From Candidatus Cloacimonadales bacterium (GTDB lineage Bacteria; Cloacimonadota; Cloacimonadia; Cloacimonadales; DAONDQ01), in assembly GCA_963662275.1 (NCBI GenBank), contig OY759316.1:3936001-4000000 (forward strand): 64,000 nucleotides of DNA, in the 5' to 3' direction. The notes beneath the pieces are model-generated. The model made no database searches, was not told where the DNA came from, and worked only from the letters and a program-made list of their open reading frames with translations. A program made the position numbers and the translations under genes. How positions within the stretch are numbered: position 1 is the stretch's first letter; every line of letters starts with the position of its first letter. Below, in pieces: positions 15,630 to 20,632 of this stretch.

Positions 15630-15831
15630 GAATCCGACAATACCATTGTCAGTTACAAACCTCCGTAACATAAAGTGGTACTTTGTTGTATGAGGGGATT
15701 GGCAATCCCCGATGCAAGATGAATTCGACAATACCATTGTCTCATACAACAGTTTACCAAACTATGCTACGCTCCAGAATCCGACAATACCATTGTCTCA
15801 TACAACAGTTTACCAAACTATGTTACGCTCC
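15630..15831. repeat. 56-bp tandem repeat x2 plus a partial third copy, and a GGGGATTGGCAATCCCC hairpin
   Basis: GAATYCGACAATACCATTGTCTCATACAACAGTTTACCAAACTATGYTACGCTCC at 15721 and 15777, partial copy at 15630, hairpin at 15694-15710. Confidence 0.88.
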
Positions 15832-15845
15832 CGCATTCTCAAAAA

Positions 15846-16943
15846 TCAAGGGGAAACCCTGACGCAGCGAAAGCCTATATGGCAGGTGCTGGTAGCCGCA
15901 TCGCCGTAGTTCCGAGCGGAAACGACGCAGTAGCTGGCACTGTCGCCCCAGCCACCGCCGCGGTGCACGCGGGCAGACCCGCTGACGACGCCATGAGGAT
16001 TGTTCTGCGCTCCACTCGGATAATCACCATAAATGTCCCAATTCCACTCCCAGACGTTACCGCTCATGTCAAATATGCCAAGTTCATTAGCTGTATTGGT
16101 GCCAACTGTATGAGTTGTGCTACCTGAGTTGGAATAGTACCAAGCAACAGCATTTATATCTTCACTACCACTGTAGGTATAACCGTGAGTTGAGTTACCA
16201 CCCCGGGCAGCAAATTCCCATTCCGCTTCGGTTGGGAGGCGATAACCGTTGGCTGTCCAAGAGCAGGTGACATTTGTGTGGTTGTTATAATCGGAATTCC
16301 AACCTGAAGGCCAGGTGGCCGGGTTAGTACCATAAGTAAGATAACTGTAACACGGTGTAAGACCTTCGCTGATGCTCCGCTTGTTACAATACTCGATGGC
16401 ATTGAACCAGGATACTTGCTCCACGGGTCCATTCGTTACACTAGAATAATAAGATGGATTTGTTCCCATCACAGCCTGATATGCAGCTTGCGTAAGCTCA
16501 TATTTATCTAAATAATAACTACTAACCGTCACATTAGAGGTGCCATTGTTGAATGTGCCACCTGCAACAAGTACGAAGTTAGCCGGAACAGATATGCTAT
16601 CCCAAGCCTGTACTTTGAAAGCAAACTGGTTGCCGTCCAATGGTGTTGCTTCATTTCCGGCATGCCAGACGATGTGCTTGCCGGTACCAATGTGTATCTT
16701 GCCAGTATCTCCACTGAGGTTGGCAGGTGTGACAGTGACCGTAAAAGTAATTCCGGCGTCATTAGACACGCTCATACTGACCCATACGCTGTCGGTGCTC
16801 GAGCAGGCTACATCATAATATATATCCAGTATTTTACTGCCATCGGTGCGCTGGGCAGCAGTGGCATTCGTTACAACAGGAGAGACAGCATAAATCGTAG
16901 CTGAAAGAATGATTACGAGAAATAGCAGAGATATTTTTCTCAT
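15846..16943 (-). CDS. Secreted formylglycine-generating-enzyme (SUMF1/CLec fold) domain protein, probable DGR target
   Basis: Signal peptide, N-terminal Ig-like domain, GGTF, KYELTQ, PVEQVSW, YRLPTEAEWEFAARGG, DMSGNVWEW, RGGGW and IGFRCVR. Confidence 0.9.
   Translation of the reverse strand: MRKISLLFLVIILSATIYAVSPVVTNATAAQRTDGSKILDIYYDVACSSTDSVWVSMSVSNDAGITFTVTVTPANLSGDTGKIHIGTGKHIVWHAGNEATPLDGNQFAFKVQAWDSISVPANFVLVAGGTFNNGTSNVTVSSYYLDKYELTQAAYQAVMGTNPSYYSSVTNGPVEQVSWFNAIEYCNKRSISEGLTPCYSYLTYGTNPATWPSGWNSDYNNHTNVTCSWTANGYRLPTEAEWEFAARGGNSTHGYTYSGSEDINAVAWYYSNSGSTTHTVGTNTANELGIFDMSGNVWEWNWDIYGDYPSGAQNNPHGVVSGSARVHRGGGWGDSASYCVVSARNYGDAATSTCHIGFRCVRVSP
15849..15980 (-). other. Putative DGR variable region (VR)
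   Basis: 36 of the last 42 codons end in C/T and only one ends in A. About 67% GC by hand count. Located at the CLec C-terminus. Confidence 0.7.
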
Positions 16944-16995: not shown

Positions 16996-17129
16996 TCAAA
17001 CTCTCCCTTGGTCCCTCCCTTTATCCAAAGGGAGGGAAATCAGACAGGATGCGGATCGATGAATTGCCAGTCTGGATAATTCCTCCCTTTGGATAAAGGG
17101 AGGTGGCAATTTATTGTCGGAGAGTTTGA
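16996..17129. repeat. REPIN/MITE-like inverted doublet of CTCCCTTTATCCAAAGGGAG
   Basis: 17015-17040 is the reverse complement of 17079-17103. Outer arms are TCAAACTCTCC/GGAGAGTTTGA. Confidence 0.8.
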
Positions 17130-17231: not shown

Positions 17232-18437
17232 TTATTCAGCCAACCGACGTTTAATATCCAGCCAGCTAACCGGCACAGTTTTGACTTCGAAATCAGAACC
17301 AGCTTTTGTAGCTTTGCTTTTCAACCGGGCTACAAGATTAGCAGTTCTTTCATCATAATACTTCACTGCCACCACACGATAATACATATGTGTAGCATGT
17401 CTGACAACGTTATGATGCGTACAACCGCTTGCAGTTTCCACTTCTTCCAGGAAATAATAAGCTGCTTCATTCTCCGCATCCGGAGATTGATTATAGAGAA
17501 TGAGGTAAGCAGATGGAACTATTGGAGTACCAAGAACAGTTAGGGTTACCTCATCCCAGGTAATCACGGCATCCCGATTATTGACTATCTCTACATTGAC
17601 GTTTTGTGGTGCTGCCGGTGGCACATAACCGATACTGAATGGGTTCTGAGATATATCGCTGCCTGAATTGCCAAAGGCATCCTTTACGGTCAACCTGACT
17701 AATGTTTGTTCAGAAGTAATGCTGGGCATCAGCCAACTATAAGAGCCGTTATTGGCAAGCTCCGGCTGGATAGAAATCCAAGTGCCGGTGCTGACCTTTT
17801 TGTATTCCAGCTTGATGGGCAAAGCTGCGATGTGGCTGTCTGATGCACACCAAAGGACATCATGAGTTTCTCCAATATACCAGCTTTCACCGCCATTGGG
17901 AGACTGCAAGTCAACCGTGGGATTTACAGTATCGACCGTAGTAAGTGGTGTAAGCATAACGGATGCTCCTGCCAGCGTGAATGCTGCATCGCTTTCGTCA
18001 TTGCTAATGTTGCCAAAGCTATCGATGGCAATAATCCTGATTTTAGCCTGTAGCACAGAGGTGGTCGGCACCGTCCAGAGATAGCTGCCGCTGTTGGTCT
18101 GATCAGCAGCCAGATTGGTATAGTTGGTACCATTATCGGCACTAAACGCAATCGTTATAGGATTTGCTATAAAATGATTATCTGTTGCACTCCATAGGAT
18201 AGCTTTTTGCTGATTGGAATAGAGCGTTTCTCCGCCATTGGGAGAAATGACCGAGAGAAGAGGGTTGACCGTATCTACTGAAACCAGTGACGTTATTGCT
18301 TCTCCCATAGAAGCATAACGGTTCGGTGGCATAAAACCGCTGCTAGTTCCTGAGTCAATTGTAATCGACACGGCTGTCAGGCTGAAACTGCATCCTAATA
18401 TTAGGAAAATGAAAAAGAGACTCCTTATCCAGCGCAT
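17232..18437 (-). CDS. Secreted protein with two SPNGGE Ig-like repeats and a C-terminal FN3-like domain
   Basis: Signal peptide, VDTVNP...SPNGGE...W...GSY.W..P...D(S/A)FGN repeated twice, then PAAPQNV...ITWD...YYRVVA. Confidence 0.75.
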   Translation of the reverse strand: MRWIRSLFFIFLILGCSFSLTAVSITIDSGTSSGFMPPNRYASMGEAITSLVSVDTVNPLLSVISPNGGETLYSNQQKAILWSATDNHFIANPITIAFSADNGTNYTNLAADQTNSGSYLWTVPTTSVLQAKIRIIAIDSFGNISNDESDAAFTLAGASVMLTPLTTVDTVNPTVDLQSPNGGESWYIGETHDVLWCASDSHIAALPIKLEYKKVSTGTWISIQPELANNGSYSWLMPSITSEQTLVRLTVKDAFGNSGSDISQNPFSIGYVPPAAPQNVNVEIVNNRDAVITWDEVTLTVLGTPIVPSAYLILYNQSPDAENEAAYYFLEEVETASGCTHHNVVRHATHMYYRVVAVKYYDERTANLVARLKSKATKAGSDFEVKTVPVSWLDIKRRLAE

Positions 18438-18739: not shown

Positions 18740-20632
18740 GGAGATGTCCCGAAACTAGCATGATTTTATTTTCTTCTGTTGTAAAATATGTGATTGTTTT
18801 TACAGGCAAACTAAATTACTCAATAGTTTCCGAAAAGCGATGCAAAGACAAGGAAAAACGGAGTAATATTTACCTAATTCATGTTTGAATTCTGGTAGGA
18901 AGAGTCTTCATCAGGCTTTTCCTTCAGTATTTTGTAAGTGCAGAAACATTTTCCCTATATTATGTCCTAAAAAGAGGAGGGATAACTGTTCCTTGCATTT
19001 TCTCAATGAACGGACAGTAAATCTCTCAAACTTCCTGTTCCACTTCATGAAAGCAAATACAGCCTCCGGTTCGATGCCTCTTTGCTTTCTCAGCTTGTCG
19101 CCTTTTTCAGAAAGCAGATTATTGACGGTCTGACGTTTTAGTGGAGCTATATGAGGATCGTAGGTCAGTGATTTATGTGTTTTATCCTTGTAGGGAATAC
19201 ACTTTTTATTGTGAGGACATTCTCTGCAGTCATTACATATATAGGTTTTCACGATTCGTTTCGGACCGTTCTTCTCTGTCTCTTCTTCCTTGATTTTGAC
19301 CAGTCTCCGATTAAATTGACAGACCCACTCATCATGCTCCTCATCATAGCTGAAGCCTGTCAGAAGAGAGTCCCGATAATCTCTCTTATAATCCTGGGTC
19401 TTGAGATAGCTTGTTATCTCTTTTTCAGCAGCATAATTCAAATTCAGCGCAGTGCCATAGGCAGCATCTCCAACAACGTCGGTAGGATATTGTCCCAATT
19501 CATCATGCATTTGCTCCATGAGATTGGGAAATTCAACGGTTTCTTTAGGGATATTGAATAAGTGAATGCCTGTGACAAATTGCTCTGAAGTTCCGATACT
19601 GGCAACATAACCCGGTGCCAGCTGTCCATTTTTCAATCGCATAAATGTGGCATCATTATCAGTCTTGGATGTGCTGCTGCGTCCTTCTCCAATTATCTCA
19701 AGCTGTTGCTCATATTTCTCCAGCTTAGTTATATCATTGCTCTTTGATTTGGAGATTTCGCGCAAAAGAGATTTGATTTTCTTGATAGCCCGAGTATCTG
19801 ACGGATGATTTTTCTGTAGTCGGGACATTGCTTCTTTCAGCTTGTTTTCTGCTGAGACCAGTCTATCTCTGATCTGTTCAGATGCGACTGTAGCAGTTTT
19901 CTCTGATTCAACCGCATGCAATTGCTCACCAAGCTCAAGAAGATCAGCGGTTCCATATTGCTGTTGCTCTTCCTGATTATATTCCTCGATCTTTTTAAAC
20001 AATCCCTCAACTCGTGTCTTGACCAGTTCCTGATAACGAAGCGCATTGCTTTTCCAGATGTAGGAATTCTTGCCGGCATTTGCGTGAATCGTCGTCCCGT
20101 CAACAAAACAGGTGTCGAGATCAAGATATCCTAATGATGATGCTTTCAGTACTACCTGATAAAATACATCAATAAGAATATCAGAACACTTAGTCCAGGC
20201 AAAGGTGTTGATCGTTCTGAAATCAGGTTCCTGTTCTCCTGCCAGCCAGATAAAATTGATGTTCTCCCGAACAGCCTTAGCTATCTTCCGACAGGTATAA
20301 ATACCATTGATATAGGCGTATACAATGATCTTCAACATCATCTTGGGATGATAAGCAGGTGTACCTTCATCAGAGTATCTTGTATATAGCTCAGATAAGT
20401 CCAGTTGCTCAACGACATCGTTAACATAACGAACCATGTGCTGGGGAGGTATTCTCTCTTCAATATTAAGTCCATAGAGTGTCCCCTGATTCGGATTGTG
20501 CTCTCTGAAATTCATAATTCTCTCTATGCTTAGTTTTTAAAGGCAACAATACACCCTATAACAATATGTCAAGTAATATGATTAATATTTAATAGTTGCT
20601 ATTTTTCTATCATTTAGTTTCGGGACATCTCC
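18740..20632 (-). mobile_element. IS1182-family insertion sequence
   Basis: Perfect 18-bp terminal inverted repeats GGAGATGTCCCGAAACTA (18740-18757 / 20615-20632) flank the transposase. Confidence 0.9.
18911..20515 (-). CDS. IS1182-family DDE transposase
   Basis: GTPAYHPKMMLK..YAY, WLAG..PDFRTI, VDGT.I.ANA, SKTDNDATFMR, GDAAYG and R...EPVF-like IEPEAVF..MK.NR.F.RF. Confidence 0.93.
   Translation of the reverse strand: MNFREHNPNQGTLYGLNIEERIPPQHMVRYVNDVVEQLDLSELYTRYSDEGTPAYHPKMMLKIIVYAYINGIYTCRKIAKAVRENINFIWLAGEQEPDFRTINTFAWTKCSDILIDVFYQVVLKASSLGYLDLDTCFVDGTTIHANAGKNSYIWKSNALRYQELVKTRVEGLFKKIEEYNQEEQQQYGTADLLELGEQLHAVESEKTATVASEQIRDRLVSAENKLKEAMSRLQKNHPSDTRAIKKIKSLLREISKSKSNDITKLEKYEQQLEIIGEGRSSTSKTDNDATFMRLKNGQLAPGYVASIGTSEQFVTGIHLFNIPKETVEFPNLMEQMHDELGQYPTDVVGDAAYGTALNLNYAAEKEITSYLKTQDYKRDYRDSLLTGFSYDEEHDEWVCQFNRRLVKIKEEETEKNGPKRIVKTYICNDCRECPHNKKCIPYKDKTHKSLTYDPHIAPLKRQTVNNLLSEKGDKLRKQRGIEPEAVFAFMKWNRKFERFTVRSLRKCKEQLSLLFLGHNIGKMFLHLQNTEGKA

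Follow-up and report, generated by a model that had tools for sequence, protein, structure and literature searches.

An orphan variable region, probably left behind by a lost diversity-generating retroelement, at the 3' end of a secreted FGE-type protein gene in a Cloacimonadales bacterium

The locus described here raises the question whether the 3' end of a gene for a secreted protein was written by a diversity-generating retroelement (DGR), and whether such an element still acts on it. The window, i.e., the whole stretch of DNA that was analysed, comprises 64,000 nucleotides (G000:C1:3936001-4000000) of the host genome, which is a single contig of 4,378,784 bases, 99.97% complete and free of N. 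The gene in question, in the following called the target gene, spans 365 codons at 15846..16943 on the minus strand (coordinates from the list of open reading frames, stop codon included). Its 3' tail had been described, from the letters alone, as strongly GC-rich and dominated by codons ending in C or T, and a recount agrees on both points. GC content is 0.662 in 15846-15990 against 0.375 in 16441-16560, and 36 of the last 42 codons end in C or T (C 26, T 10, G 5, A 1). The rest of the target gene has a GC content of 0.46 and the genome as a whole 0.39. Scanning the genome in 4,378,640 sliding windows of 145 nt (mean GC 0.391, sd 0.053) returned a sole region with a GC content of at least 0.662, G000:C1:3951846-3952025, which corresponds to 15846-16025 of the window, a signal well outside what chance would give. 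Compared with the 200 codons upstream, the tail is poor in coding-strand adenine (0.13 vs 0.27), rich in third-position C (62% vs 27%) and nearly devoid of third-position A (2% vs 17%).

The encoded protein starts with a plain signal peptide, which lacks a lipobox cysteine as judged by sequence inspection, continues with an N-terminal stretch of about 100 residues for which no family match was found, and then enters an FGE-sulfatase/C-type-lectin-fold (CLec) domain. The domain was assigned by PF03781 at residues 123-362 (E 1.9e-40), ends three residues before the stop codon and, after conversion of the Pfam residues, occupies 15858..16577 on the minus strand. This assignment is a fold-level family match. 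TvpA of T. denticola (2y3c_A) is the closest solved structure by sequence (phmmer E 7.1e-42, query residues 133-360 vs chain residues 50-290), which is in good agreement with the earlier placement of this protein among TvpA-type DGR targets. FGE enzymes match the target protein at about 1e-11 only, against 7e-42 for the non-enzymatic TvpA.

Upstream of the target gene, at 17232..18437 on the minus strand, lies a partner gene for a secreted protein with repeated Ig-like domains, which are indicated by weak Big_7 and Kre9_KNH matches below the Pfam cut-offs. Its product is 44% identical to that of the gene preceding the DGR target in the relative G155, and the pair of Ig-protein gene and FGE gene recurs at four other paralog loci of the host genome. 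Between both genes, at 17014-17103, we observe two hairpin-forming palindromes of 22 nt, which are perfect inverted copies of each other and 46 nt apart. About 0.5 kb past the Ig-protein gene, an intact DDE transposase of 534 aa (DDE_Tnp_1_6 / DUF772) is encoded at 18911-20515.

As the host genome has no template repeat (TR) of its own, the tail was tested against the TRs of relatives, which come from another taxonomic family. The core of the presumed variable region (VR) that is homologous to TRs of related DGRs comprises 122 nt (15859..15980, minus strand, delimited by TR alignment). Compared with the best TR, found at locus L138 of genome G081, it differs at 27 of 44 TR adenines and at 8 of 91 non-A positions (Fisher p 2e-10), and about half of these eight differences fall at the two ends, outside the homology. 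For the TR of a viral contig, discussed below, the numbers are 26 of 44 for A and 10 of 97 for non-A positions. When the VR is held against 27 unique TRs, five of its non-A differences are found in no TR, three of them at the edges. Broken down by codon, the 15 AAY codons of the TR show 10, 9 and 0 changes at their first, second and third position, respectively, whereas non-A changes in the 26 remaining codons number 0, 1 and 4 at these positions. Read from the alignment, this is the reverse of the pattern expected from ordinary divergence. In its framework, the VR shares about 95% identity with the TR family, whereas for the 600 nt upstream the identity to target genes of relatives in family f3 is only 72-73%; the tail was thus overwritten from a TR long after the gene bodies had diverged.

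As positive controls, the same TR/VR scripts were run on six distant loci, where they place 15/15, 15/15, 17/17, 18/19, 16/17 and 9/10 of the mismatches at A, and they also recover TR/VR pairs beside RTs in Cloacimonadales. Judged by its alignment with the relatives' TRs, the 3' tail of the target gene is a genuine DGR-written variable region. The core claim of the sequence-only reading, namely that a secreted FGE/CLec protein carries a DGR variable region, is thereby supported by the A-specific differences together with the PF03781 and TvpA matches. Moreover, the template worked out by hand in that reading agrees, but for a few letters, with the TR family adjoining DGR RTs in related Cloacimonadales.

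The relatives show what a complete system of this type looks like. At locus L134 of G155, the genes are arranged in the order Ig-domain protein gene, FGE target, 146-aa accessory gene, Avd, RT and TR, where the Avd matches phrog_3206 (E 2.3e-23). DNA of the TR family was matched in 68 of 203 genomes of the order, including 54 of the 98 genomes of family f3, which is not the host's own family.

In the host genome, blastn (word size 7) and an nhmmer profile found no TR; they returned VR-like segments only, 40 in number. All of these reside in open frames, either at gene ends or in internal FGE domains, and none is Asn- or A-rich, so that they were ruled out as TR candidates. The whole-genome BLASTn search that had been proposed for a non-coding template copy near RT and avd genes thus yields coding segments throughout. 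In 255 comparisons of a segment with the genome, the highest share of mismatches at an A of the subject is 0.50, while true pairs reach 0.9-1.0.

The search for a DGR-type RT in the host genome was equally negative. PF00078 identifies 18 RTs, none of them of this type: 17 carry a GIIM maturase domain and are of the group II intron type, and one is a Cas6-RT-Cas1 protein of 893 aa. A six-frame hmmsearch with a DGR-RT profile, which was built from three RTs adjoining verified TR/VR pairs, returned the same 18 RTs with at most 167 bits, compared with 224-391 bits for the DGR RTs of relatives. A DGR RT motif, written as a regular expression, has 0 matches in the host genome and 3 in control loci. 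Two of the RTs were considered individually as DGR candidates and rejected. The unique 397-aa RT at G000:C1:2211xxx combines YADD and maturase motifs with a GIIM domain and is a group II intron RT; the 893-aa RT is the Cas6-RT-Cas1 fusion, which adjoins Cas2-like and type III genes.

With respect to these RTs as such, three length classes can be distinguished among the 17 group II intron RT/maturase genes: a single 397-aa ORF in a 412-aa open frame, and open frames of 444 and of 459/465 aa. The Cas6-RT-Cas1 fusion is encoded at G000:C1:3092718-3095399, beside a Cas2-like gene and type III-like genes.

Homologs of the Avd and the accessory protein of G155 are likewise missing from the host genome (tblastn, E <= 1e-3). 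Four PF05635 four-helix-bundle genes were considered as Avd and dismissed, since by comparison of coordinates none lies near any VR, TR or RT. Near one of them, in locus L020, an A-biased repeat pair had the appearance of a TR/VR pair and proved to be a 7-bp tandem array. This array, at 1872-2196 of L020 (G000:C1:~1306115-1306439), consists of 46 copies and adjoins the PF05635 gene, on the other side of which a 9-copy array of the complementary 7-bp unit is found.

Within the window, the statement that 64 kb contain neither TR nor RT holds: tblastn with the relative's Avd, accessory protein and RT gave nothing at E <= 1, and a degraded Avd or RT downstream of the target gene was not detectable by tblastn either. 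Where the cassette lies in G155, the window shows non-coding DNA of about 850 nt that contains short repeats. The one genome of the same genus that was searched (G001; 99% complete, 240 contigs) contains no DGR RT at E <= 1e-10 and no TR-like DNA even at E 0.001; it gives no sign of a simple vertical inheritance of a DGR within the genus, a point against the loss scenario proposed below. The sequence-only reading had made its case dependent on a template or a DGR RT in this genome or in close relatives. Host and nearest relative have neither, whereas the profile scores 224-391 bits in 50 of 200 other, more distant genomes of the order (hand count, E <= 1e-60).

We consider it likely, with a probability of roughly two thirds, that the tail is an orphan VR left after loss of its retroelement. 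In this scenario, cDNA from a TR of the family now present in many Cloacimonadales would have replaced the 3' end of the target gene, and its last 122-135 nt would represent the VR written by the DGR. Template adenines would have been copied as random bases during this process, which would explain the NNC/NNT codons, the loss of A and the GC content of 66%, the latter because the non-A framework of the TR has about 70% GC and most of the substituted adenines became G or C. Subsequently, RT, Avd and TR would have been lost from the lineage, leaving a VR that is orphaned, fixed and evolving like ordinary DNA. We infer that a DGR once resided in the lineage and that the VR no longer changes. Most probably, the hypervariable tail is a frozen leftover such as has been described before in other bacteria, and the target protein is a secreted or surface protein with a presumed role in ligand binding, its binding face frozen in the last state.

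Loss of a DGR can be observed elsewhere in the order. Locus L138 of G081 (G081:C7:82538-85672) comprises the target, an intact TR and two fragments in between, namely 88 aa from the start of the accessory gene and 55 aa from the end of the RT; Avd and most of the RT are deleted. This is a DGR caught mid-deletion, and DGR decay hence occurs in Cloacimonadales. By hand cross-tabulation, a DGR-type RT at E <= 1e-50 is missing from 27 of the 67 further genomes that contain TR-family DNA, a count that is an upper bound because several of them are fragmented MAGs; within this bound, DGR loss that leaves frozen but intact binding proteins appears to be frequent in the order. The closest non-paralogous homolog of the target, G022:C2:10539-11600 (loci L027 and L167; 61% identity), has a VR-like end that is 78% identical to the TR and resides in a genome that is 99% complete and gives no DGR RT match. 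It is likely another orphan VR.

The target gene is a member of a large family in its own genome, which contains 46 matches to the target protein at E <= 1e-20, one of them a 3333-aa frame in which many FGE domains stand in tandem. When 24 VR-like segments were compared with their best TR, all of them showed an excess of change at A sites, and non-A divergence rose from 0.088 in the target gene over 0.110 up to 0.37. We read the approximately 20 paralogs with a TR footprint as relics of different ages, of which the target gene is the least decayed. Only about two core non-A differences of its VR are absent from the sampled TRs, and therefore either the loss is recent or the template was supplied from outside the chromosome. 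As to the 3333-aa open frame, located outside the window at G000:C1:2907987-2917573, it comprises about a dozen tandem FGE/CLec domains, and several of the internal domains retain a VR-like, GC-rich footprint of NNC codons.

Around the 3' end of the TR homology and the stop codon, 37 of 39 nt are the same as in the verified VR of G155, as counted from the printed sequences. By analogy with the IMH of other systems, the last codons and the stop codon (15846..15858, minus strand), together with the flank just downstream, likely represent the target-recognition side. The 161 nt downstream fold better than shuffled sequences (z -3.2); this value refers to folding as such at this one locus.

A repeat search revealed two tandem copies of a 56-nt repeat at 15721..15832 on the minus strand, beginning 14 nt past the stop codon, and a related inverted partial copy at 15664-15694. 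The repeat occurs in 22 copies in the genome. Fourteen of these follow 8 FGE/VR genes in the same orientation, at a distance of up to 400 nt downstream, against an expectation of 0.07; for 8 copies, the 1.5 kb upstream contain no FGE gene. With 82-98% identity, the copies are more alike than the genes they follow. An Rfam search assigned the repeat to no family, and in other Cloacimonadales it is absent except for partial matches of at most 31 nt.

Among the competing explanations, the one that fares best regards the VR as a still live target, which is rewritten in trans by a mobile DGR (RT, Avd and TR) on a phage or another extrachromosomal element, with the approximately 20 paralogs with conserved 3' ends as alternative landing sites. 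We judge it unlikely. It would be in line with a VR that is almost undecayed relative to the TR family and with the near identity of the VR 3' end and flank to a verified VR. TRs that are 84-100% identical to those of G155 occur in several genera of one family, which suggests mobility. Moreover, one IMG/VR contig (L166/L252) carries a TR of the family and an RT that is 84% identical to that of G155, so that a mobile source exists. In the last ~7 kb of this contig, portal, head-maturation protease and virion structural genes are directly followed by TR and RT; the contig ends inside or at the RT, and its own target is outside the visible sequence. However, it is the sole viral contig of this kind in two scans, and there is no sign that its phage infects the host. 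A genome with 99.97% completeness also contains no RT, TR or cognate Avd, where it has to be considered that a one-contig assembly would omit extrachromosomal elements of the same cells.

The behaviour of the VR among sequencing runs bears on the same point. Five public runs from two studies contain the target stretch, all stored as contigs, and four were compared. In 4 of 4 runs from both studies, the VR lies on a contig that spans 15799-16062 or more with zero differing letters; from 15791 to 16056 the comparison shows no other letters. Rare variants are lost in contigs, and the assembly may have been built from some of these runs; read accordingly, the invariance lends weak support to a static VR and speaks against a live target. 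In three runs, the depth over VR and gene body is 48/48.6, 11.5/11.1 and 15.7/15.7. In run X4, the depth of the VR contig is roughly half that of the gene body (30.3 vs 56.9; 15782-16067), and the contig has one copy fewer of the 56-nt repeat. This gap would suit a live target and may indicate a second 3'-end variant in the sample. Joints across the VR, e.g., 15777->16027 with 193 other letters in between, were rejected as VR variants, as they carry 10-13 other letters on each side; we interpret them as paralogs caught at 85% likeness. A comparison of the VR between populations was sought among metagenome contigs, where no contig of the same species was found and the best relative is 69% identical. 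The sequence-only reading had proposed that a DGR at another site of the genome diversifies the VR in trans. With no TR copy and no DGR RT in that genome, and a VR that is invariant in the contigs of four runs, this part could not be upheld.

A more far-reaching version, which we regard as rather unlikely, takes the approximately 20 genes as a chromosomal bank of landing pads for a mobile, phage-borne DGR. In the presence of a phage with RT, Avd and TR of the family, they would be rewritten in trans wherever the 3' recognition end is intact, the decay series would reflect successive visits with the target gene as the latest, and the 56-nt repeat could be part of landing-pad recognition or turnover. 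If a trans-acting mobile element were indeed at work, the view of host range and target repertoire of phage DGRs would change.

It is quite improbable, in our assessment, that no DGR ever acted in this lineage and that the 3' end or the gene family was imported ready-made from DGR-bearing Cloacimonadales by horizontal transfer or recombination. An import could be seen in the distribution of the 3' 215 nt, which match 33 of 98 genomes in f3, 1 of 62 in f11, 0 of 1 in the same genus and none in the other families searched, and in the GC content of the target locus, which is above that of its surroundings. Yet a donor is not seen, since among the 202 other genomes of the order the same VR stretch reaches at best 79% identity, with no near-identical copy. 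The gene body, measured over the 600 nt upstream of the VR, is closer to the host's own paralogs (76-77%) than to the f3 targets (72-73%), and about 20 paralogs at graded stages of decay are more readily explained by repeated writing in place than by many separate imports. Finally, an ordinary expanded paralog family without any retroelement history, in which loops vary by point mutation and selection and the composition is set by the amino acids, is hardly credible: conserved Arg, Gly, Trp, Cys and Ala do need GC-rich codons and the whole family is GC-raised in this region (0.48-0.59), but no other window of the genome is as GC-rich as the VR, the differences affect 61% of A sites as opposed to 9% of non-A sites, the 15 AAY-template codons show 0 third-position against 19 first- or second-position changes, and a real TR with the VR framework adjoins RTs in relatives.

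The orphan VR can be placed among known systems as follows. Canonical DGRs, such as that of Bordetella phage BPP-1 with its target Mtd or the multi-target systems of Treponema and Legionella, act on targets in cis or at remote sites, and their genomes contain RT, TR and Avd as well. Our case shares with them the adenine-specific mutagenesis of AAY codons, the position of the VR at the 3' end of the target and a conserved stretch after the VR, and differs in that RT, TR and Avd were searched for in the host genome and are absent. TvpA is a lipoprotein with a resident DGR. In both TvpA (2y3c) and the host protein, the VR forms the C-terminus of an FGE-type CLec fold; the host protein, in contrast, lacks a lipobox cysteine, has an extra N-terminal domain and resides in a genome without a DGR. 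Locus L134 of G155 resembles the host locus in gene order, as the Ig-protein/FGE pair is syntenic. Its target shares 62% identity over 373 aa with the host protein, both genes agree almost completely in the last residues, IGFRCVRVSP, and in the 3' flank, and the TR framework matches the host VR. Here, the non-coding DNA of about 850 nt replaces accessory gene, Avd, RT and TR.

PMC11661182 mentions DGRs in Cloacimonadota. As stated in PMC8144416, the usual DGR surveys start from the RT or need a TR/VR pair on one contig, and the survey presented there was unable to detect remote targets; orphan targets such as the host VR therefore escape such surveys. The present case shows that the sequence alone suffices to recognise a VR, and that the relatives' TRs allow it to be dated.

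A 2016 study (PMC4891356) describes, for T. denticola isolates, DGR targets left over in genomes that lack RT and TR. Its authors identified them through A-specific differences from TRs of DGR-bearing relatives and interpreted them as what remains of lost DGRs. The orphan VR of the host therefore belongs to a known kind. Both cases share VRs of the FGE/CLec type, differences that fall mostly at TR adenines, the absence of RT and TR, and several genes per genome. Compared with the leftovers covered there, ours occur in a different phylum, the Cloacimonadota, and the TRs for comparison come from another family instead of strains of the same species. The host family is also much larger, with its 46 FGE matches, about 20 of which show the TR footprint in graded form, and has the 56-nt repeat enriched downstream of its genes. 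Three features thus stand out in this host: a large relic family whose members are decayed to graded extents, a target copy that is still fresh, and the repeat enriched downstream.
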